Assembly: GCA_965218295.1 (NCBI GenBank)
Contig: CBDCKN010000009.1
Span: forward strand, 384,001-448,000
Origin: Longimicrobiales bacterium
GTDB lineage: Bacteria > Gemmatimonadota > Gemmatimonadetes > Longimicrobiales > Gaopeijiaceae
Reading direction: 5' to 3'
Length of the DNA: 64,000 bases
A program made the position numbers and the translations under genes. Below, piece by piece: positions 49,367 to 64,000 of this stretch (positions within the stretch are counted from its first letter, which is position 1; every line of letters begins with the position of its first letter). Below the pieces are notes generated by a model. It saw nothing but the letters and a program-made list of their open reading frames with translations, was not told where the DNA came from and did not search any database.

Positions 49367-50386
49367 TCAAGCGACATGGCGCCACGCCTCACCTGTGCGA
49401 AGCATCGCGTGCACCGCACGAGCGAGCTTGCGTGCGGTGGCGATGCGAGCGACACGCCAATCGAGCCGATCCTTGAGCCGGTCGTAGTACTGGCTGAGCC
49501 AGCTATCGGGAGATCGGCCATGATGGATGACGACGGTCTGGACGAAGGCATTACGGAGCCAGCGGTTGGCACCGGCCGGGATCGGCCCGTAGCGGACGGT
49601 CATCCCGGAACGAGAGGAACGAGGAGCGAGTCCTGCATAGCTCACGAGGTGCTTCGGGCCTCGGAAGCGCTCGATCGGCAGGGTCTCGGTGGCGATCAAG
49701 AGGGCGCGGTAGGGTCCGATGCCGGGAACCGTGCGAAGGAGTTCGACGGCCGGGATCTCGCGGCCGACCTCGAGGATGCGACGGTCGAGCGACTTGATCA
49801 TGTCCTTGAGTTCGTCTGCGATGCGCTCATGCGTGCAGATGAGTCGTTGCTGCTCGGGCCCCATGCGGGGCCAGGCGATGGTATGGACCCAGCCACGTCC
49901 CTCGGCGGTGAGCAACCGACCGCGGGGCAGGCAGAAGCCCAGAGAGTGGAGCTCGGCATGAATGCGCGACGCCGAGGAGGTCCGCATCCGGACGAGTCGG
50001 GCCTGGTGCCGGACGAGGGTGGCCTGCTCGCGTTGGCTGATGGGTTTGCAGTAGACCTCAGGGATGAGGCGCACGAGTTGCATGCGAGCGAGCAGCGTGG
50101 CGTCGATCGCATCGTTCTTGTAGTTGGCCTCGGCGATCGCACGCAGCTTCTTCGCGTGGGCGAGCACGAAGCGACAATCCGGTCCGTTGAGCAACTCGTA
50201 TAGCCAGGGCCAGGACGGACTCGTCTCGACGACGACCTCGAGCGGCCGATAGGCATTCAGCAGCTCAACGAGCCGGTCGGACTCGGTGTTGCGGATGCGG
50301 AGCGGCTTTTGGACGAACGCTCCGTCATTGCTCACGATCGCGACGACGAGGTACGTTGCGTGAGCATCGATTCCTGCGACATACAT
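49367..50386 (-). CDS. IS110-family DEDD recombinase
   Basis: GIDAH, VVETS, KNDAIDA, VPGIG, SYAGLAP...RSG (catalytic Ser), A.ARKL. Confidence 0.95.
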   Translation of the reverse strand: MYVAGIDAHATYLVVAIVSNDGAFVQKPLRIRNTESDRLVELLNAYRPLEVVVETSPSWPWLYELLNGPDCRFVLAHAKKLRAIAEANYKNDAIDATLLARMQLVRLIPEVYCKPISQREQATLVRHQARLVRMRTSSASRIHAELHSLGFCLPRGRLLTAEGRGWVHTIAWPRMGPEQQRLICTHERIADELKDMIKSLDRRILEVGREIPAVELLRTVPGIGPYRALLIATETLPIERFRGPKHLVSYAGLAPRSSRSGMTVRYGPIPAGANRWLRNAFVQTVVIHHGRSPDSWLSQYYDRLKDRLDWRVARIATARKLARAVHAMLRTGEAWRHVA

Positions 50387-50990
50387 GATGGCCTCCTGGT
50401 GGTTGGCAGCCGCAGGTTACTTGGGGAAGTGCCAGCGTAGTGCGCCGGCCGTTGGGAGGCCATCCGCTTTATAAGGTCAGCAGAATCGTGAGACGGTACT
50501 GACTGGCGCGAGTTCTATACATGTGCGTATTGGCCGCACGGAATACGAGTGGAATAGGAGGCCGGACATGAAGGATGTGGCGTTCGGACTAGTGGGCGGT
50601 GCCGTGGGTGCCTTTGTCTGGGCCGCGGTAGTATATGTGACCGAATACGAAATCGGCTGGATCGCCTTGGGAGTCGGCGGGCTTGTGGGTTTCTGCGTAG
50701 CTCTCGGTAACAAGGATCGCGGCAGATCTCCGACGGCTGCTGGCACTCTCGCCGTTGTAATCACAGCCCTCTCCATTGTGGCGGGCAAGTACGCCGCTGT
50801 CGAAATGCTCATGCCGAGCGACGCCGAGCTGGTCGGGATGTTCACAGAGCGCTTCGACGACGAAGAGTATGTCGTCTCGTTCCTCGCAGACGACGTTGCC
50901 GGCGAGTTCCGATCAGCCGGCCGTGAGATGGTCTGGCCGCAGGGGGTCGATCCGGCCAACGCGTCAAGTCAGTCGGACTATCCCCCCGCG

Positions 50991-52221
50991 TGTACAGAGA
51001 TGGTAATGACCTGACAGTTGGCCCTCGCCGGAGCTGTGTCTAGGCTGCCTTCGTCTTAGCCTCCTCCTTCCTGGCCTTTGCGGCCTTCCTGGCGTCGGTG
51101 AGACCGGCCTTGAAGACCTGATAGGGCGTGCGGCCCTCCATGGCTCGACCGCGGTGCGGCCGCTTCCGGTTGTAGGTCTCCAGATACGCCTCGAGGTCCT
51201 GCTGCATCTCCTCGACGGTCTCGTACCAGGTGGTGCGGCCCTTCACCCTCAAGTGCTCGTCGAGGAGCGTGCGGTGGAAGCGCTCGATGAAGCCGTTGGA
51301 CTGGGGCCTGCCCACCTTCGTCGTGCGGTGCTCGATGTCCTCGAGCTGAAGGAACAGCTCATATGGGTGACGGTCCGGACGGCCGCAGAACTCGCGGCCG
51401 TTGTCGCTGAGCACGGTCTTCACCCGGACCCGGTGCTCATCGAAGAACGGCAACACGTCGTTATTCATCACCTGCACCGCCGTGAGCGGGAGCTTGCTCG
51501 TGTAGAGCCGGCCCCAGGCGTAGCGGCTGAAGCAATCGAGCACGGTCTGCAGGTACACCTTGCCGACCCCCTTCAGCGTTCCGACGAAGAACGTGTCCAC
51601 GGCGACGAGGTCGCCCGGGTAATGGACTTCGATGTGGCGCTCCCGGAACTCGGGACTGAAGCGCTCCAGCAGCTCGATCTGCTCGTCGGTCAGCTTCAGC
51701 TTCCGTTCCCTGGCCGTCTCTTCGAGCCTGAGCAGCCGTTCGTGCTTCGTGGTGAGGCCATGCCGGCTCCACACGCCCCGTACGCCTCCTGAGCTCACCT
51801 GGATCCCTCCGAGCAGCAACTCGTCCGCGACCCGCTGAGCTCCGTGCGTCGGAGCCTCCAAGGCGTGGGCCAAGACCGCCTGCTCAATCTCTTCACTCAC
51901 CCGGTTCGGGTGCGGTCCCTTCGGCCCCGGAAGCTGGTCGATCAGCCCCTCGGCCCCGTAAAGCTGGAAGTTCCTCCTGATCTCGTAGAACTGCTGCCGG
52001 CTGTAGCCCACGATCTTGCACGCCTTGCTCACGTTGCCGAGCTCCTGGGCCAACTGTAGCAGGCTCAGCTTGCGGCGCGCTATCTTCTCCCCCTGGACGG
52101 TGGTCATCTTCTCTCCCGTGCTAAGTGAGTGACTTCGACATCTCTCAATTAGCTCCGGCGAGGGCGGCTGGCCACCGTCCTCTCTCGTGGTCAACTGTCA
52201 GGTGAATACCGTCTCAGCACA
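50991..52221 (-). mobile_element. IS481-family element
   Basis: TGT...ACA ends, 30-bp imperfect IRs, 7-bp TSD CCCCGCG. Confidence 0.93.
51040..52107 (-). CDS. IS481-family DDE transposase
   Basis: ELGNVSKAC..GYSR..FY HTH, AVDTF, SDNGREF, NGFIERF. Confidence 0.95.
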   Translation of the reverse strand: MTTVQGEKIARRKLSLLQLAQELGNVSKACKIVGYSRQQFYEIRRNFQLYGAEGLIDQLPGPKGPHPNRVSEEIEQAVLAHALEAPTHGAQRVADELLLGGIQVSSGGVRGVWSRHGLTTKHERLLRLEETARERKLKLTDEQIELLERFSPEFRERHIEVHYPGDLVAVDTFFVGTLKGVGKVYLQTVLDCFSRYAWGRLYTSKLPLTAVQVMNNDVLPFFDEHRVRVKTVLSDNGREFCGRPDRHPYELFLQLEDIEHRTTKVGRPQSNGFIERFHRTLLDEHLRVKGRTTWYETVEEMQQDLEAYLETYNRKRPHRGRAMEGRTPYQVFKAGLTDARKAAKARKEEAKTKAA

Positions 52222-53118: not shown

Positions 53119-53330
53119 CTAGGGAGTGAAGGCGATCAGGAGGACCCAAAACAGCAGTTGGATAAAGAACGCCCACACTCCCATCGTCCGTCCCATCTCA
53201 AGGCGATACTCCCTCATCTCCAGCTTGTCGATCCTGTCTCTGTAGATAAGTTCCAACCTGTCTATTTCTTCCATCCCCCACCGTATGTCGATGGTGGCCT
53301 GGAGATCGTCCTCCCAGTATCGCTCCGGTG
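53119..53330 (-). pseudogene. possible C-terminal fragment of a membrane protein abutting the integrase remnant
   Basis: Charged helix plus a C-terminal TM segment; the 5' part overlaps integrase-like sequence. Confidence 0.3.
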
Positions 53331-53332
53331 TC

Positions 53333-53923
53333 ACGACCAGGGCGGTCTCGGATCGGCTCGCGATGGAGATGCGGGTGAACAGCAAGAGGGAAGGCCAGCG
53401 CAGCTACCTTTCTGAGATCCTCGACATCATCAATGGCACAGGCCGCCGGATCTCAGCGGTGTGTTCCCTCACATTTGATGATCTAAAGCTGCATGAGGGC
53501 CCCTACGGCTTGATTTGCTGGCCTGCCGACACGGACAAGATGGGCCACGAATCCACGGTGCCTATTTCGCCACCCGTAAGGGCCGCTCTCGACAGAATCC
53601 TCGCAGAGCGGCCAGGCATCGGGGCAGCGCCCTTGTTTCCCTCGCCAGGCGATCCCACAAAGCCCATGACGCGCCACCTTGCAGACAAGTGGCTGCGGAA
53701 GGCGGAGAGGCTTGCGGGGCTGGAGCCGCTCAAGGGGAGCCTGTGGCATGCGTACCGGCGGAAGTGGGGCTCGGAGCGCAAGCACATGCCCGATGTTGAC
53801 GTAGCTGCGGCGGGCGGCTGGAAGGACACCGTAAGCCTCAAACGCGCCTACCAGCAGGCCGATGCCGATACTATCTTATCTGTCGTTCTCGGCGGCGGTG
53901 AAGTGAGGGAGCGGAAGGCATGA
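53333..53923 (+). pseudogene. tyrosine recombinase/integrase, catalytic domain only (5'-truncated)
   Basis: TGRRISAV (catalytic R), DK, WHAYRR (H-x-x-R), GGW, AY. Confidence 0.85.
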
Positions 53924-53974: not shown

Positions 53975-54048
<74 letters not shown>

Positions 54049-54175: not shown

Positions 54176-54294
54176 TTCCCTCTCTGCCAACTTAGGTGAG
54201 ACACGGAACGAGTAAAGAATTAGAGTAGGGCGAAGGCAGAGAAACCGAGGATGCTGAGACACCGAGAGAGAATGAAAGAGAATGGAATAGCCCC
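54176..54294 (+). mobile_element. truncated left end of the neighbouring IS3-like element, in inverted orientation
   Basis: Near-identical reverse complement of 56277-56395, including the orfA start MLRHRERMKENGIAP. Confidence 0.9.
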
Positions 54295-54583: not shown

Positions 54584-54799
54584 ATGCGCACGACACTCCA
54601 ACGCCATGCCATTGGGCTAGCCCTGGCGCTTCCCTTCTTCCTGCTCTCCACTCAGGACGCTGAAGGCCAGCGCCGAGGCAAGAAGGCAAAGGAAGAGGCG
54701 AAGGTCACCGCCGAGATCACGGCGGAGTTCACGCTGACGATTGGCGTCCGTGAGCAGATCCGCGAGTACTACACGGCCAATCCGCAGCCCGAGCTGGAC
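54584..54799 (+). pseudogene. secreted protein N-terminus truncated by the IS3-like element
   Basis: Signal peptide and ...REQIREYY... run into the IS end at 54800. Confidence 0.55.
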
Positions 54800-54866
54800 G
54801 GAACCTGTCAACGCCAGTGAGACACTCGGAGCCTGTCAACGCCAGTGAGACACTCTTGGGAATTAA

Positions 54867-55874
54867 TTAGAGAGCAATCTCCTGTGTAGTGAGGGATGGG
54901 GTGGGAGGATTGATCCAGACGGCCTCCGGGAGTGGTTTAGGCTTCGGCTCACCGGAGACGAAGCGCTCGGGATGAGCGGCCCATGCCTCACGGAGCACGG
55001 CCTTCCTGCAGGCGATGATCCGATCGGCGTGACCGAAGTGGACCTGTTCGGGGGTCAGCATCGAGATGCCGCCATGGCGGTGCTCGGCATTATACCAACG
55101 GAAGAACGAGCGACAGAAGGTCTTGGCTTGCCCCTGATCCCCGAACCGGCCGGGAAACGAGGGATGGTACTTCAAGGTCTTGAACTGAGCCTCGGAGAAC
55201 GGATTGTCATCCGAGACCTGGGGTCGGCCCAACGAGCGGGTCACGCCGAGATCGGCGAGTAGTTGAGCCGTGCATTGGCTCGTCATCGGAGCCCCTCGAT
55301 CGGAATGCAGGGTCAGGAGGTGGGGCTGGACGCCATGCTTCAAGCAACTCTGCTGGATCAGCCGGCTGGCCAGGGCAGAGTTCTCCCGATCCGCCACCAT
55401 CCATCCCACGACGTAGCGGCTGAAGATGTCCAGGATCACGTAGAGGTAGAAGTAACTCCACTTCTTCGGCCCCAGCAGCCGGGTGATATCCCAGGACCAG
55501 ACCTGGTTCGGGCCCCTCGCCATCAACTCGGGCTTCTGGTATTTGGGATGACTCCGCTGCGCTCGACGCTCCTGAACCGGCACCTGGGAAGCCAGAACGC
55601 GATACATCGTACGCTCGCTGCACAGGTAGACGTCCTCGTCGAGCAGCGTCGCCACCACCTCGGCTGGGGACCGGTCCACGAACCGCTCCGAACACAGGGT
55701 GTCGAAAATCTTGTCCCGCTCCCTCTCACTTAAGGCCCGGGCGGGGGTCGGGCGGGGCTGCTGATGCCCGGTCGATGCACTCCGACGACGGTAGAACGTG
55801 GCTCGCGGCACCCTGAGCGCATCGCACGCGGGCTTCACCCCTACGTGCTTGGCTAGCTCCTGGGTCGCCTTCAT
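54867..55874 (-). CDS. IS3-like OrfB DDE transposase
   Basis: PNQVWSWDIT, LDIFSRYVVGW, HSDRG, DNPFSEAQFKTLKY. Confidence 0.93.
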   Translation of the reverse strand: MKATQELAKHVGVKPACDALRVPRATFYRRRSASTGHQQPRPTPARALSERERDKIFDTLCSERFVDRSPAEVVATLLDEDVYLCSERTMYRVLASQVPVQERRAQRSHPKYQKPELMARGPNQVWSWDITRLLGPKKWSYFYLYVILDIFSRYVVGWMVADRENSALASRLIQQSCLKHGVQPHLLTLHSDRGAPMTSQCTAQLLADLGVTRSLGRPQVSDDNPFSEAQFKTLKYHPSFPGRFGDQGQAKTFCRSFFRWYNAEHRHGGISMLTPEQVHFGHADRIIACRKAVLREAWAAHPERFVSGEPKPKPLPEAVWINPPTPSLTTQEIAL

Positions 55875-56320
55875 GAGTTCGTCCCGTCCTCGAGGCTCAA
55901 TCCCAGCAGCCCTGCAACTTTTCCCTGGACGTCGATGATCAAGTGCGCCTTCTGGAGCTCCTTCTCGAGGCGAGTGTTCTCGCGCTCCAGCTTGCGCACC
56001 TTCTCCTCCAGCGGATTGCGCTCGCGCTTACGGCCTCGTTTCTTCGACAGCGCTTTCAGGGACCCGCTATGCGCCGCCTTGCGCCATGTCGTCAGGTGCG
56101 ACGAGTATAAGCCCTCCCGCCGTAGGAGTCGGCCAACCTCTCCGGGCTCCGTGCACCGGTCCGCTTCTTCGACGATCCGCAGCTTGTACGACGGAGCGAA
56201 CCGCCGGCGCAGCGGCCTATCTACCACCTCCGAGTCCGCAGGAGCTGCCGCGCTTCGCTTACCGTCCCAGGTTGGTGGGGCTATTCCATTCTCTTTCATT
56301 CTCTCACGGTGTCTCAGCAT
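55871..56320 (-). CDS. IS3-like OrfA (HTH + coiled coil)
   Basis: RRRF...YKLRIV.EAD, LLRREGLYSSHL..WR; ATGA overlap with orfB. Confidence 0.9.
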   Translation of the reverse strand: MLRHRERMKENGIAPPTWDGKRSAAAPADSEVVDRPLRRRFAPSYKLRIVEEADRCTEPGEVGRLLRREGLYSSHLTTWRKAAHSGSLKALSKKRGRKRERNPLEEKVRKLERENTRLEKELQKAHLIIDVQGKVAGLLGLSLEDGTNS

Positions 56321-56395
56321 CCTCGGTTTCTCTGCCTTCGCCCTACTCTAATTCCTTAGCTGCTCCGTGTCTCACGTAAGTTGGCAGAGAGGGAA

Positions 56396-56626
56396 CGTGA
56401 GATATCTTCCGGGCTCCCCGGACATTGCGAACAAATCCAAGCGAAAGGCGCTCTTTGTACATGGATGTTTCTGGCACTACCACAAGGGGTGTCCACGGGG
56501 GACGGTCCCAAAGAGGAATTCCGCCTACTGGGAGGAGAAACTTGAGCGGAACCGTGAACGAGATCGGCAGAAGACTGAAGCCCTTTCTGGCCTCGGCTAC
56601 ACGACATACTCGTGGTTTGGGAATGC
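56396..56626 (+). pseudogene. vsr: very-short-patch-repair endonuclease remnant
   Basis: LPGSPDI, FVHGCFWH.H, W..KL.RN..RD; GYDILVVWEC after removing a duplicated ac. The 5' end is lost at the IS3 end. Confidence 0.85.
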
Positions 56627-56905
56627 CGTTCTGCGGTACGGAGATGCAGAGACGCTCAGCCTCGGGCGGGCGCGGGCATTGCTCGATGCGTTGAAGCAGC
56701 TATCGGTGGAAGACCCTTATTTCAGATCTGAGGATTGGGGTCCACATGCCGCTGCGGGACTGATGCGTGAGGAACTCAAGGACGACATCCTGGCCATCAT
56801 CGATGCGCCCGACCACGCGCAGCTCACGAGTTTCCTCCTTGAAGCTATGGTTGGCACACCACTCGCGCGGCAACTTCGCCCCGAATTGGAGGCAATGCTG
56901 TTCGC

Positions 56906-58283
56906 GAGCTAGGATCAAAGGGTGTGTAAAAAGAGAGGCGACGTACCTTTCCGCTGAGTAATAACCAGCGAACTCCGGGTGACAGCCCGGGGGAAAGGAA
57001 CGACGCCTCGTGAGGAAGAATACGGTGGGACCCGAGGGTGAGTCCAGGACGCCCGTGTGGGAAGTTCTGGAAGAAGTGGTTCGGGAGAAGGCGCAGGAGT
57101 TCATTCAACAGATCTTGGAGGAGGAAGTCACGGAGTTGCTAGGGCGAGAGAAGTCAGAGCGCAGGAGGGTGGTGGACGCGACCGAGGGCTACCGCAACGG
57201 ATACGGCAAGCCGAGGCGGCTGGCGATGAGCTCGGGCACGATCACACTCCGACGCCCTCGAGTTCGAGGCCTTGAGGAGCGGTTCGAGAGCCGCGTGCTG
57301 CCGTTGTTCGCGAGGCGGACGAAGGAGCTGGGCGCTCTGCTTCCGGAGCTGTATCTGCACGGACTGGCGGAGGGAGACTTCGAGTTGGCGATGCGGGGCC
57401 TGCTGGGCGAGGGGGCACCGCTGTCGAAGTCTTCGATTCGGCGGCTGCGGGCGGGATGGACGGCGGAGTTCGAGGAATGGAGCCAGCGTCGCCTGGAGGG
57501 TCGTGAGGTCGTCTACGTGTGGGCGGACGGGATCTATGTGAAGGCAGGGCTGGAGCGGGACAAAGCGGCGCTGCTGGTGGTGCTGGGTGCCATGCGAGAC
57601 GGGACGAAAGAGGTGTTGGCCCTGAGAGCGGGCTACCGAGAGTCGGTCGAGTCCTGGTCCGAGGTGTTGCGGGACCTGAAGGCACGCGGCATCGAGGCGC
57701 CCCGGCTTCTGATGGCGGACGGTAACGCTGCGATCTGGGGCGCAGTACGGCAGGTATGGCCTGAGGCGGGTGAGCAACGGTGCTGGAACCACAAGATGAG
57801 GAACGTGCTGGACCGACTACCTCAGCGGGAGCAGGGCGAGGCGAAGGATCTTCTCCGGGCCGTGGTCTACGCACCGAGCCGGGCCGAGGCCCTGAAGGCC
57901 CGCGAGGTGTTCGCCCGACGCTATAGGCCGTGGTATCCGAAAGCAGTGGACGTACTCGAGGACGACTGGGAGCGGATGGTAGCGTTCTACGACTTCCCCG
58001 AGGACCACTGGAAGCATCTACGCACGACGAACGTGGTCGAGAGCCCGTTCGCCGCGGTACGGCTCAGGACGACAGCAGCGAAGCGGTTCAAGCGGGTCGA
58101 GAGCGCTACGGCGCTAATCTGGAAGTTGCTCTTGGTGGCTGAGAAGCGGTTCCGAAGGCTCGACGCTCCTCACCTCCTCAAGGACGTATTTGAAGGAAGA
58201 AAGTTCGAAGACGGAAAGCCCGTCTCACACCAACAGCGGAAGAACGCCGCCTAATACGTTTACACACCTATTGACCCAACCTC
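56906..58283 (+). mobile_element. IS256-family element A, copy 1 (transposase 57010-58254)
   Basis: 25-bp imperfect IRs GAGCTAGGATCAAAGGGTGTGTAAA; 8-bp TSD CTGTTCGC; WADG, DG, QRCWNHK, RTTNVVES. Confidence 0.95.
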
Positions 58284-59773
58284 CTGTTCGCTCGAGACCG
58301 TGACTATCAGGAGCGGTTGCGAGCTACCGCTGCAATATCCGCTGAAGGCAGTGTCTACGATCGGGAAGCCCTTATTCGCCAGCTTCTCGAATTGAACGAC
58401 GGCGATGCTGCGCGGCTCGCATTCTACCTCCTCCACGAGGTCGGGGCGGGGGCCGTTTCCGCAGATATTGTCTTGGACACCGTCTTGGCGTTTCCGGGGC
58501 TTGACGCGAAGCGTGATCCCACTTCGACATCCGGCGAGATCTGGTACCCGCCCGACAGTCTTTTCCGTGGCCTTGGTGTCGACGAGATCCCGACACTTCT
58601 CGACCGCTTGGTCGAACGGGTGGGACCGTCGCTGGAGGACGCCAACCACTCCGCGAGGTCATTCCTCACGGACTCGGTGACACACCTCGTAATCCGGACT
58701 CTCGAGGGCGATCCCGAAATCGAGCCGGAGCGCCTATGGGCGTGGCTCGGCTGGATAGAAGAACGCGACTCTCTCGCCAGGGACAGCCGAGAACAGCTCA
58801 CCGCAGTATTCCGAGAGAACCGAGCTCTTCGTGCGGCGCTTCTGAAACATGTGCTACTGACGCCGCGCGCCGACAATCTCTGGATGGCCCATGATCGCCT
58901 CGGGGAAATGGGATTCGGCCTGGATCCAACAAGTGAGGACCTTGCGGGCGTGCTGAGGGCCCTGCGCACACGGGCAGACGATGGCCCGATAGATCCAAAC
59001 ATGTGGCGCGACCTCTTGCGCCTTGACTGTTCTCCCATCGTGCGGGATACGGCTGCCGAAGTGGCAAACGCGGACCCCGAACTGCTGTCCATAGTCACCG
59101 AGATGTCTGAGGTAGTCGCGCCGGAATGGAGGGTCCGAGAGGAGCAGCGCAGAGCTCGCATGAAAGCGGAGCAACAGGAGAGTTATCAATCCCATCGCGA
59201 TACGCTTGCCGAGAACGCTACGGACGTTGTCGCTGGCGATTTCCGCTTTCTGGCCTTGCCGGCCGCTGTGTATCTCAATCGAAGCAATGCGCTCCCTAGA
59301 CATTTCCGTCTTGATTCCGAGGCATCCCCGCAAGAGCGTCTGAGCATTTTTCTCGGCGACACACTCAGTGAGCAGGTGTTCTCAGGCTTCGTGGCGGTCC
59401 TGAGTCGTAGCGACTTGCCGAGCGCTTCCGAAGTCGCCCAAGCGCATTGCAAAGACAAACACTGGAACGTCGAGGCGCCCATGATATGCGGTGTCGCCGG
59501 GATGCTTCGCCAGGGCTGCCCGATCGATACCGTCGATCGGGGCACGCTCGCCGCAGTCTACATGGCATGGCAACGAGCTCCAGAGTCAAACGTTGTTGGG
59601 CCAATGGACATCGGGCCGGCCCTCGAAGCGGTCCTGTTCACAACGGAAGAGGACGAGGAAGCCCACTTCCGCACCAGCATAGAGCCTCAGCTGCGTCGCA
59701 ACCTAGAACACATCCGCGAGTTGCACCGGCTTGTCGAACAACCCCGCTTCTCCGCGCTGGCAGGCCGCCTCGC

Positions 59774-62616
59774 GATGGTGTCCCGCTGACAGTTGAAGGT
59801 GGTGGCTCCGGAGAGTCTCCTTGTTAGCCTGCCTTTCTCATTTCGGCAACCGGTTCATGGTCGTCGAGGTGGGCCCTGAGCATCCAGAGCTGGTCGTAGC
59901 CGATGATCCTCCGGTAGCTCTTCTCGGTCTCCACGAACGAGGCCGCAGCCCAGCGCAAGGCCATCGCTCCGTTCTTCCAGTTGGTCACCCTGCGGGTCTT
60001 CTGTCTTACGCCCGAGTGGGTGCTGTCGATCAGGTTGGTCGAGCCCAGGCACTTCCTCAGCCGCGGCGGGAGGCCGAGCCGGTTGATCGTGAACATCTCG
60101 CTGAGGCCTTCGCGTAGGCTGGCCGAGGCCGAGGGGTGGTCGCGCTCGAGCCATCGGGCGAGCTGCTCGAGCTTCTGCTCGCCCTCCTTCGCGTCCAGCT
60201 TCATCGCTGCCCGGAACACCGCCTTCACCTGAGCGTGCTGATCCTTCGGCAGATGACCCAGCACGTTGCGGAGCGAGCTAGGATCAAAGGGTGTGTAAAA
60301 AGAGAGGCGACGTACCTTTGCGCTGAGATTTAAACCAGCGAGCCCGGGTGACAGCCCGGGGAAAGGAACGTCGCCTCATGAGAGAGGATATCGCGGGACC
60401 CCAGGGTGCGTCCAGCAGGCCGATGTGGGAGACGCTCGAGGGGATGGTTAGGGAGAAGGCGCAGGAGTTCATCCAACAGATCATGGAGGAGGAAGTCACG
60501 GAGTTGTTAGGCCGGGAGAAGTCAGAGCGCAGGAGTACGGTGGACTCGGCCGAGGGCTACCGCAACGGATATGGCAAGCTGAGGCGGTTGGCGATGAGCT
60601 CGGGCACGATCACACTCCGACGCCCTCGGGTTCGGGGCGTCGAGGAGCGGTTCGAGAGTCGGGTGCTGCCGTTGTTCGCGAGGCGGACGAAGGAGCTGGG
60701 CGCTCTGCTTCCGGAGCTGTATCTGCACGGACTGGCAGAGGGAGACTTCGAGCTGGCGATGCGGGGACTGCTAGGCGAGGGGGCACCGCTGTCGAAGTCT
60801 TCGATTCGGAGACTGCGGGCGGGATGGACGGCGGAGTTCGAGGAATGGAGCCAGCGTCGCCTGGAGGGCCGTGAGGTCGTCTACGTATGGGCGGACGGGA
60901 TCTACGTGAAGGCAGGGCTCGAGCGGGACAAGGCGGCGCTACTGGTGGTGCTGGGCGCGATGCGAGACGGGACGAAGGAGGTGTTGGCCCTGAGATCGGG
61001 CTACCGAGAGTCGGTCGAGTCCTGGTCGGAGGTGTTGCGGGATCTGAAGGCACGCGGCATCGAGGCGCCCCGGCTTTTGATGGCGGACGGCAACGCGGCG
61101 ATCTGGGGCGCAGTACGGCAGGTATGGCCTGAGGCGGGCGAGCAACGGTGCTGGAACCACAAGATGAGGAACGTGCTGGACCGGCTGCCTCAGCGGGAGC
61201 AGGGCGAGGCGAAGGATCTTCTCAGGGCCGTGGTCTACGCACCGAGCCGGGCCGAGGCGGTGAGGGCCCGTGAGGCGTTCGCCAGACGCTACAGGCCGTG
61301 GTATCCGAAAGCGGTGGACGTACTCGAGGACGACTGGGAGCGGATGGTGGCCTTCTACGACTTCCCCGAGGATCACTGGAAGCATCTACGCACGACGAAC
61401 GTGGTCGAGAGCCCGTTCGCTGCGGTACGGCTCAGGACGACGGCGGCGAAGCGGTTCAAGCGAGTGGAGAGCGCTACGGCGCTGATCTGGAAGTTACTCT
61501 TGGTGGCCGAGAAGCGGTTCCGAAGGCTCGACGCTCCTCACCTCCTCAAGGACGTATTTGAAGGAAGAAAGTTCGAAGACGGAAAGCCCGTCTCAACCCA
61601 ACAGCGGAAGAATGCCGCCTGATACGTTTACACACCTATTGACCCAACTTCTGCGGAGCTTGTGGTTGCGGCACCGCTGGATGGGGTGGCGTTGGCCGAA
61701 CACCTGGCCGATCGCCTTCCTGAGCGCCTTCGAGCCGTCGATCACGAACAGACGCCGCCTGTTCGGGTCCATCCCGCGCTCGACCAGGTCCTCCAGAAGC
61801 GCCCCGGTCACCTCGGCGTTCTCACTCGCTCCTTCCCTCACGCCCAGCACGTGCTTCTTCCCGTCTGAGTCCACACCAACGGCCGCCAGCACGTGGTGCG
61901 AGCCCATCTGGATCCCGTCCAGGTAGATCACCAGCAGGTCCCTCGCATCCAGCCGGCGTTCCATCAGCTCCTTCAGCACGCGCTCTGAGGCCTCGGTCGC
62001 TTCGCGGCTCACCGCCGACTTGCTCACCCCGACCGTGTCGGCCATCTCTGCAATCACACGGCCGTACTTCCGCGTGCTGACCCCCGCCATCAGGATCTCG
62101 AGCATCCGATCCGCTACGGCGCCTGGCCTCCGCATCGCCGTGTACGCCGGCACCTCGACCTCGCCTCCCTCACCTGCGCTCCGCCGCCTGAGCCGTGGCC
62201 GCTCCACACGCACCTTCCGATCCGACAGGTAGACCAGACCACCCTGCCGGCCGTACCACACCGTGTCGTCTTTCGCTCGTGACCGGCCCGCCTGCTTCGG
62301 ACCCGCTACCCCTTCGGCGCTCATCTCCAGCACCGCCTCGATCGTCGCGCGTCCCATCACCTCAATCACCTCGTCGATCGCGAGCTCGGCATGCTCCACC
62401 AACTCAAGCATCGGCAGCAGAAACTGACCCTCCCGCTTCAGGAACTCCCTGATCGCTCGCTTGTCCGCTCGCTCCGTGACCTCGTACGTTCTCTTCATTG
62501 TGGTGGCTCCGTGTTGGGGGTTTTTCCCTGCCCGATCCTACCTGGATCGGGTCCCCCGGAGCCACCACTTCTTTCCTCCCCTATCAGGGACCTTCAACTA
62601 CCGACGGGACAGCTTC
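59774..62616 (-). mobile_element. IS256-family element B, interrupted by element A copy 2
   Basis: IRs GATGGTGTCCCG / GAAGCTGTCCCG; 8-bp TSD CGCCTCGC; transposase 62498-61660 + 60274-59824 rejoins as CRNHKLR|NVLGHLP (429 aa). Confidence 0.92.
60275..61651 (+). mobile_element. IS256-family element A, copy 2 (transposase ends at 61622)
   Basis: Same IRs as copy 1; 8-bp TSD TGCGGAGC; protein nearly identical to copy 1. Confidence 0.95.
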
Positions 62617-64000
62617 CGCCTCGCTGTCGAATGGCTGGGCGCATACCCTGCATTGTCCACCTCCACCCAGGGGCAACTCCTGACCTGCGCGCTTAATAAC
62701 GCCACGTCTGAAATGGTCCGGGCACTCCGAGCTGACATCCAGACGAGTGGCCACTGGGATGACGAGACGAAGACAATTTGGCTATTGGCGGACTATATCG
62801 TCGACTTCGACAGTCACCGCAACGTGCTTGAGGAGGCAGCTGAGGATAACCGAAACTTGCTCTGGACCATCCGGAACCAGGTTCGGCCGAGAGGTCGGGA
62901 GCGATTCCACCGGCTCTCGCTCGACCATCTCGTCTTCATCGTAGAGACTTTCGGCACGCATTGGCCCAGAAGAACATTTCCCAACACCGTCTTTCATGGC
63001 GATGGCAACCCGTGGGATGCAAGCGAGTTCATCGAGCGCTCGATCCATGCGATCGCTAGCCGCCCATCGCCTCAAGCCACCGAAGCATTGCAAAGCCTGA
63101 TCGCGGATTACGCCCCGACGTACGCTGATACGGCAAGGCACGCGCTCGCGCTTCAGCTCAGGACCCGGCGGGACTCCGAATATACCGCACCCACGCTCGA
63201 ACAGCTTAGGGCTGTGATGACGGACGAACTACCCGAGACCATTGATGACATGCGGGCATTCTTTGCAGACCGTATAGCGGATCTCCAAGGGCGGATGCGT
63301 GGCAGCAACACGGACATGTGGGAGGCCTATTGGGTCGATGACAGACCTAGGAAGGAGACCTTCTGCCGGAACCGCCTTATCGAACACATTTCGGGCGCGT
63401 TGCCGGAGTCGATTCGGTTCGAGCCGGAGATGCACATGCCCGGTCAGACGCGGGTGGACATCGCCGCGATCCGGAACACCATCGGGCTACCGGTCGAGAT
63501 CAAGTGCCAATGGCATCGCGAAGTGTGGAACGCCGCGAGCGACCAACTCGATACGAAATATGCGCGTGACTGGCGCGCGCAAGGCCGCGGCGTGTACATC
63601 GTTCTTTGGTTCGGCGACGTTCCCGGGAAGCAGATCCCAGGACATCCGGAGGGTCTCGAACGGCCTGCGACACCTGAAACGCTCAGGCAGATGCTGATCG
63701 ATCGCTTGAGGCGCGACGCCCATTGATCGATGTCCTCGTCATCGATATCAGCAGGTCCATGGGGACCGCCTGAGTTTCACTGATCGACCAGGGTACCACT
63801 CATATGACAATGCCTATGGACTGCTTCGCCTCGTCGTTCCAGGCGGCGGCGCCCTGACCCCGGCGAATGGCTTGATCAGAAGCCTGTCCGCCCGTGCGGG
63901 CGTGACCGATCTCAGTCTTGCCACCCCGTGCGTCCCACAGGCCAGCATCACGCCAATCCGCACCATCATCCAGGATTGGCCGAACGGTTACGCGAGGTTC

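Follow-up and report, generated by a model that had tools for sequence, protein, structure and literature searches.

In this study, we analyzed a stretch of 64,000 nucleotides from a Longimicrobiales bacterium of the phylum Gemmatimonadota (GenBank assembly GCA_965218295.1, contig CBDCKN010000009.1, positions 384,001 to 448,000 of the forward strand), referred to here as the window. Positions 56625 to 63773 of the window contain what we consider, with a probability of about 0.9, a multiply broken and likely dead pseudogene of the antiphage gene eruA (Erebus, also Avs10), from which the NACHT part was deleted and which carries three IS256-family insertion sequences (IS) and a 4-nt deletion. The initial annotation, made from the sequence alone, had described this region as a hidden but recoverable gene; a multiply broken pseudogene was found instead. 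The intact ancestor was a single protein of 1333 amino acids with a NACHT domain (residues ~1-360), a helical sensor of ~750 residues and a C-terminal PD-(D/E)xK domain.

Reconstruction of the reading frame and its lesions

The remnants of eruA and the elements interrupting them are listed below, with residues numbered as in the nearest intact relative, P0001 (1333 amino acids).

56625..56905, plus strand: eruA remnant segment 1, P0001 residues 363-456, 100% identical
56906..58283, plus strand: IS256a, transposase 57010-58254, 8-bp target duplication 56898-56905 / 58284-58291
58292..59773, plus strand: eruA remnant segment 2, P0001 residues 457-950, all-helical sensor, type A
59774..62615, minus strand: IS256b, transposase split by IS256c, 9-bp target duplication 59765-59773 / 62616-62624
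60275..61651, plus strand: IS256c, nested in IS256b, 93% identical to IS256a, 8-bp duplication
62625..63703, plus strand: eruA remnant segment 3, P0001 residues 951-1311, sensor end and nuclease domain
63703..63726, plus strand: 4-nt deletion after 63703 and premature stop at 63724-63726
63704..63773, plus strand: original 3' end of eruA in the other frame, stop at 63771-63773

Removal of 56906-58291 and 59774-62624 gave one stop-free frame of 1045 codons from stop to stop, and both junctions read as first claimed and matched P0001 across the joints. The eruA-derived part of this frame began at 56625 and continued for 954 codons up to the premature stop, or for 971 codons with the tail in the other frame included, in line with the size of ~970 codons proposed earlier. 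The frame start had been given as 56627, a reading that contains 33 stops and had to be corrected. The small frameshift expected near 63707, hiding a terminus with its stop at 63773, turned out to be the 4-nt deletion. All three of the annotated IS256 insertions were confirmed by PF00872 transposase matches and exact target duplications. The elements had Mutator-type transposases, imperfect terminal inverted repeats and duplications of 8-9 bp, as is typical of the IS256 (Mutator) family, and showed nothing unusual for it; one copy sits inside another.

As an independent check, contigs from four public runs (four studies; including X3, X4, X7 and X8) were placed on the region. One of these runs is possibly the source of the window itself, run X3 has more than one allele, and the contigs do not phase the lesions. 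Joints free of IS256a and of the nested IS256c were present in four of the four runs, and the IS256b-free joint in three. The 4 letters absent from the window after 63703 were likewise found in three of the four. Because the empty sites and the missing letters were seen in these contigs, the reconstruction is not a chance reading; it is real and well supported. Three further joints between IS ends and eruA were observed in other runs (54878-56905, 56393-59773 and 57953-59313, with sides of <30 letters), possibly separate insertions in other strains, which is unproven.

IS256 is known for phase variation in the staphylococcal ica locus. The perfect target duplications retained here and the empty alleles in other runs would suit a reversible switch, in which precise excision restores defence. 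However, excision would leave the 362 deleted codons and the 4-nt deletion unrepaired, and the empty alleles are not phaseable with the window haplotype from the contigs. This explanation is largely refuted by the NACHT deletion, and we rate it as extremely improbable.

In place of its deleted 5' part, the eruA remnant is joined to a fragment of vsr, with the following features at the junction.

54799..56394, minus strand: IS3-like element, HTH_Tnp_1 and rve open reading frames (ORFs), ~45 near-full copies in the genome, abutting the 5'-truncated vsr
56395..56626, plus strand: vsr remnant, TIGR00632 profile positions 42-112 of 119, 5' end lost, 2 extra letters at 56599
56623..56626, plus strand: 4-bp microhomology at the deletion junction, joining vsr to eruA codon 363

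A search with four close queries found residues 1-362 (NACHT) neither in the window nor in the genome (3.57 Mb, 90.7% complete). The vsr contigs of runs X7 and X8 follow the window sequence up to 56626 and then diverge from it, and their eruA contigs match it from 56623 onward, while contigs of X3 and X4 cross the junction without differences. These breaks and crossings indicated a deletion that joined vsr to codon 363 through the 4-bp microhomology. The initial annotation had taken the adjacent vsr as a sign of a defence locus; the adjacency is a product of the deletion and not a conserved linkage. A conserved linkage of vsr and eruA was also rejected on the basis of the other loci, since none of 27 (3-24 kb, many of them short) contained a vsr match. 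The 5' end of vsr was lost at the IS3-like element, which has no target duplication here, unlike many of its other copies. The left end of this element is also duplicated in tandem over 28 nt (54799-54854), and 2 kb away, beside a tRNA gene, an incomplete end from a sister subfamily (119 nt, 54176-54294) lies in inverted orientation.

Relative to X7 and X8, the window has the 2 extra letters at 56599, without which vsr has a normal Vsr tail and with which its frame enters that of eruA. For this reason, the spliced frame also stays open across the vsr remnant on its 5' side. One alternative is that, before the IS256 insertions, a functional fusion of ~1030 codons existed that lacked the NACHT part and consisted of the Vsr fragment, the sensor and the nuclease, with the 2-nt insertion selected for frame. 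Such a fusion would be consistent with this open frame, with an in-frame GTG at 56397 that follows a purine-rich part of the IS end, with the X3 and X4 contigs that hold the junction and the 2-nt insertion together, and with the sensor of Avs7, which functions without a nucleoside triphosphatase (NTPase) in Dsr1 (PMC13581612). However, the chance odds of being in frame are ~1 in 3, the 5' end of vsr is gone, and the only promoter-like site lies downstream of the GTG. Furthermore, the 4-nt deletion, which truncates the nuclease fold, is present in X3 too, and the Vsr motif was found in 0 of 240 homologues, just as vsr was missing from the 27 loci. We consider this fusion very unlikely.

It is also conceivable that the whole arrangement, including the vsr junction and a mosaic patch described below, is an assembly artefact, as the genome is rich in IS with many near-identical copies and the source of the window may be among the runs that share the junction. 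Against this, X3 and X4, which span the junction without differences, come from different studies, X3 contigs span both borders of the 65-residue patch, and each IS has matching target duplications. An artefact of this kind is hardly credible.

The genome is undergoing an IS bloom. Near-full copies of three IS families numbered 40, 13 and 45 (~98 in total), many of them ≥99% identical. Together, these families made up 4.7% of the genome assembly and 58% of the bin at 56001-64000, and another bin consisted of 45% IS. The decay of eruA took place in this setting. A microhomology deletion fused the middle of the neighbouring vsr gene to codon 363 of eruA, and the remnant gathered small indels as well as insertions of IS. 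The frameshift removed the last 22 residues, including the final beta-strand of the predicted nuclease model, although the window copy keeps the nuclease motif. Because the NACHT part is gone, two IS blocks lie in the frame and the nuclease is truncated, the window copy should make no working protein.

Family identity, domain architecture and published function

When longer proteins were searched with segment 3, 356 relatives were found, and most of the 120 listed were ~1335 amino acids long; shorter homologues of 950-1080 amino acids were also present among the listed relatives. PF28130 was listed for many of the relatives. P0001 aligned to the window over residues 363-456 (100%), 453-951 (98%), 948-1311 (90%) and 1309-1333 (92%), and the remnant was collinear with its residues 363-1333. 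The NCBIfam model NF058535 ("NACHT domain-containing antiphage protein EruA"), with a cut-off of 1000 bits, gave 1217 bits for P0001, 1192-1289 bits for all 12 homologues tested, 1165-1365 bits for all seven GTDB loci (L008-L014) and 1326 bits for one plasmid copy, while the distant relatives L016 (909 bits) and L017 (776 bits) were under the cut-off. Along the 1318 positions of the profile, the window segments aligned in order at 356-449, 461-937 and 937-1304, with 99, 262 and 390 bits when taken singly, each under the cut-off. Judged by its sequence, the window copy is a pseudogene derived from eruA and not a member protein. All three of its segments are collinear with Erebus EruA, and its nearest intact allele has the length class and domain order of that family; the window copy differs in the absence of residues 1-362, the three IS256 insertions, the C-terminal frameshift and a 65-residue recombinant patch.

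Membership in Hypnos HyoA (NF058534, cut-off 1200 bits) was rejected, because the relatives reached only 74-169 bits, a weak likeness over the NACHT and early sensor regions; the window segments had no match to this profile at E≤0.01. Pfam and PADLOC named neither of the two large eruA segments. For the intact relatives, Pfam gave only weak NACHT matches (E 3e-6 to 0.06, 12 of 12) and PADLOC nothing, which is why the gene looks anonymous in older annotation. Comparison of P0001 with solved structures by sequence yielded three matches, all at chance level. The name Erebus (EruA) reportedly goes back to van den Berg et al. in 2024. A review contains a passage on the naming paper (PMC13276650).

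The initial annotation had proposed a STAND (signal transduction ATPase with numerous domains)/NACHT-type protein whose ATPase half was deleted, and had suggested examining homologues for an N-terminal NACHT domain. This domain was present in the full-length relatives of ~1335 amino acids, with Walker A in 195 of 196. Aspartates D80 and D83 of Walker B were invariant in 90 of 90 aligned proteins and fit the NACHT signature D[GAS]hDE given in bioRxiv 2022.07.19.500537. The helical scaffold was borne out as well, in keeping with the large TPR-like sensor of Erebus/Avs10, as the 493-residue middle segment of the window was modelled as an all-helical solenoid with a predicted local distance difference test score (pLDDT) of 89. 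Foldseek gave only generic solenoid or repeat-protein matches for this model, with low template modelling (TM) scores.

A nuclease-like D...ExK motif at the C-terminus had also been predicted, and it lies in the window as follows.

63427..63504, plus strand: PD-(D/E)xK-type motif, codons E 63427, D 63457, E 63496 and K 63502

These codons correspond to E1218, D1228, E1241 and K1243 of P0001. E1218, D1228 and K1243 were present in 90 of 90 homologues and E1241 in 89. The last 230 residues of the intact relative L008 were modelled with a pLDDT of 81.8, and the best structural match was BstYI (Z 8.6, root-mean-square deviation 3.4, 139 aligned), followed by OkrAI, BglII and BamHI with Z of 8.2, 7.9 and 7.7, respectively; below BamHI, the matches were mostly PD-(D/E)xK nucleases. 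The family domain differs from the BstYI/BglII/BamHI type in having only 5-12% sequence identity and in being an effector at the C-terminus of a STAND protein. Based on this model, the case for a restriction-endonuclease-like fold is good, not overwhelming.

The initial annotation had considered the system possibly poorly characterised. The family is in fact neither new nor untested and is already a known kind of phage sensor: it bears the names Erebus (EruA) and Avs10, its trigger is published, and an ExK mutant was tested (PMC13581612, Nature 2026). According to that paper, Avs10 comprises Erebus, Hypnos and bNACHT64 and senses the phage major capsid protein, and its models show the sensor wrapping the HK97-fold A-domain of the capsid protein. 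In its source data, EhAvs10 together with three capsid genes lowered survival to 0.0005-0.015, and the E1263A-K1265A mutant restored survival to 0.57-1.16, with killing abolished. Among 13 of the 23 capsid rows, 4 were strongly depleted by EhAvs10, and there was no such depletion for T5, lambda, HK97 or P22. According to the same source, most Avs proteins carry their effector at the N-terminus. A plasmid preprint (10.64898/2026.03.27.714766) calls the mechanism of Erebus unclear.

EhAvs10 shares with the window family the STAND NTPase and the helical sensor, and its essential ExK (1263-1265) is located where the C-terminal ExK of the family lies. The ExK glutamate, found in 188 of 196 full-length relatives, had a median position of 1250 (5-95%: 1236-1273) and was at 1255-1259 in Pantoea and Serratia members. 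Because these positions cover the region of 1263-1265, the residues mutated in EhAvs10 are very likely this motif. The comparison was one of motif positions, and a capsid specificity common to both may be supposed by analogy. Whereas the architecture, family assignment and lesions come from the present analysis, the steps of the mechanism are extrapolated from relatives. By analogy with EhAvs10, the sensor of the intact ancestor would bind the major capsid protein of phages, and killing of the infected cell would depend on the D...ExK domain. As in the Avs7 structures of PMC13581612 and in STAND proteins in general, binding would release autoinhibition and trigger ADP-to-ATP exchange and oligomerisation, which would assemble the active DNase.

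Several points weigh against this interpretation. The genome is only 90.7% complete. The nuclease model of L008 had no Foldseek match at E≤0.001, and Z of 7.7-8.6 is a level that the structural comparison tool rates as common. The link of EhAvs10 to this subfamily rests on the naming in the paper, the EruA profile and the position of the motif. The enterobacterial homologue L017, with its 776 bits, is under the EruA cut-off, so the protein tested in the published work may sit on a remote branch that responds to other triggers. Finally, two independent IS256 insertions in 2.9 kb have P ~0.001 under uniform insertion, a value that calls for local clustering or for selection to inactivate.

Selection of this type would be expected if the nuclease, freed by the loss of an autoinhibitory NACHT, were toxic, and if the 4-nt deletion and the IS insertions were fixed as suppressors and not by drift. 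The at least four separate inactivating lesions in 2.9 kb, two of them the direct IS256 insertions of that low P, and the hyperactivation of other bacterial NLRs (nucleotide-binding leucine-rich repeat-type proteins) by mutations in the NACHT module (bioRxiv 2022.07.19.500537) are consistent with this. However, IS cluster in dispensable DNA anyway, as in the two bins with 58% and 45% IS, no clear promoter or native start is left for the remnant, and the activation of Avs7 requires an NTPase-driven tetramer (PMC13581612). We consider selection of the lesions unlikely, and it concerns the cause of the decay and is compatible with a dead eruA pseudogene.

Two sensor types on shared NACHT alleles

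The closest relatives combined two NACHT alleles (83-90% identical) with two sensor types, A and B (50-69% identical), and all four combinations were found, each on separate contigs, with 15 of the 26 P0005-cluster members among the matches listed.

NACHT/sensor combination 1: P0001, P0389, P0392
NACHT/sensor combination 2: P0390, P0393 (and variant P0002/P0003)
NACHT/sensor combination 3: P0005, P0399, P0407
NACHT/sensor combination 4: P0402, P0404, P0405, P0406, P0008

Break points between NACHT and sensor were located near residues 372-411 (max-chi, 0 of 1000 permutations). In the tree of the sensor region of 21 proteins, A and B formed separate deep groups, by construction, as the types were defined there. 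In the NACHT tree of the same number of proteins, A and B interleaved, and keeping either type together was rejected by the approximately unbiased (AU) test (p-AU 4e-43 and 3e-4). Among 90 homologues, P0040 and P0085 had the NACHT and the nuclease in common and not the sensor, and this pattern recurred in other pairs. These sequence comparisons suggest that two sensor versions on shared ATPase parts have likely been swapped by recombination.

The window allele itself is a mosaic, with the following patch in segment 3.

62941..63135, plus strand: recombinant patch of 65 codons, 97% identical to type B (P0005) and 55% to type A (P0001)

The flanks of the patch in the window allele were 96-99% type A, and this allele was the only type A with a type B patch among the 26 sequences compared. 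X7 and X8 carried a diverged version of the same length at the patch site. It is possible, though we hold it only tentatively and at well under even odds, that the Erebus/Avs10 genes of this lineage diversify by block swapping of the capsid sensor through recombination in the conserved flanks (the NACHT/winged-helix end and the nuclease). On such a reading, types A and B would persist on a shared pool of NACHT alleles and shorter patches would move between the types. Immune receptors are well known to exchange domains. PMC13586616 deals with swaps and chimeras among defence systems at large. Literature searches on Avs10 and on recombination or swapping of Avs sensors listed nothing about swapped sensors in this family, and the supplementary tables of PMC13581612 may bear on it.

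Genomic context, distribution and significance

Upstream of the IS3-like element, the window contains a tRNA gene and the end of an integrase-like gene.

53285..53923, plus strand: tyrosine recombinase ORF of 212 amino acids, C-terminal part, PF00589 E 2.9e-11, ending just before the tRNA
53975..54048, plus strand: tRNA-Ile(GAT)

The recombinase ORF is a possible marker of an island boundary. No second copy of the 3' end of tRNA-Ile (14-26 nt) was found elsewhere in the genome, so no boundary could be fixed. Upstream of the tRNA, further IS elements lie at 49367-52194, with an IS110-family transposase and an rve-type transposase, the latter of which splits a membrane-protein gene.

An N4/N6 DNA methyltransferase ORF, apparently intact, lies just downstream of the window (L015:2342-6924; G000 C9 448341-452923). 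Convergent with it are ORFs of 839 and 239 amino acids that had no Pfam, PADLOC or NCBIfam match; together, they are possibly an unannotated restriction or defence module. About 350 bp of the 3' flank (63773-64130) was common to an intact copy in genome G272 (L032:13802-13873, L033:2594-4143), which is located in a different region, likewise rich in IS and devoid of tRNA genes over 40 kb. This shared sequence suggests that eruA moves together with downstream non-coding DNA.

A PADLOC scan of 86 of the 157 ORFs called in nine loci revealed clear defence neighbours in four of the seven GTDB loci, two of them with the same arrangement; no background rate accompanies this count. The neighbours were as follows.

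L008: type I restriction-modification
L009: ThsB, IetAS and a Fic protein
L012 and L013: OloAB in the same arrangement, and in L013 also RmrTA
L014: weak matches and an IS helper only; L011: one weak match; L010: none

In L012 (6071-14790) and L013 (6086-14790), from two genera, eruA is divergent beside OloAB and is followed by an overlapping ORF of 260 amino acids without a family match. The Pantoea plasmid copy lies between Ppl and an Abi gene, and the Burkholderia plasmid copy had no annotated defence neighbour.

The family was patchy, occurring in 2 of 61 related genomes including this one, in 0 of 2 of the same genus, and in 28 of 301 genomes of the phylum; the nuclease profile matched 2184 cluster representatives. 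Distant members in the phylum (L003, L024, L025, L030 and others) had open frames of 1500-1820 codons, with possible extra N-terminal domains, and several genomes had two copies. A metagenome scan yielded no locus (49 pattern matches, 0 confirmed). Two runs labelled sponge metagenome shared only 0.26-0.32 of the words and do not count here as evidence of habitat.

The locus itself is of little weight, as the defence gene in question is a named one and this copy of it has decayed. It does show cleanly how such a gene is lost during an IS bloom, and it cautions that an apparent neighbour, here vsr, can be a product of deletion. The shuffling of sensors is the one new point and merits a modest follow-up. 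The determinant of capsid specificity is a question for a family that, in the published sources, is represented chiefly by models and a single tested protein. Since NACHT and sensor assort independently among the natural alleles, these offer a direct test of which part of the Avs10 sensor sets this specificity. If types A and B recognise different capsids, this would be a case of balancing selection acting on diversified receptor alleles of a bacterial NLR.

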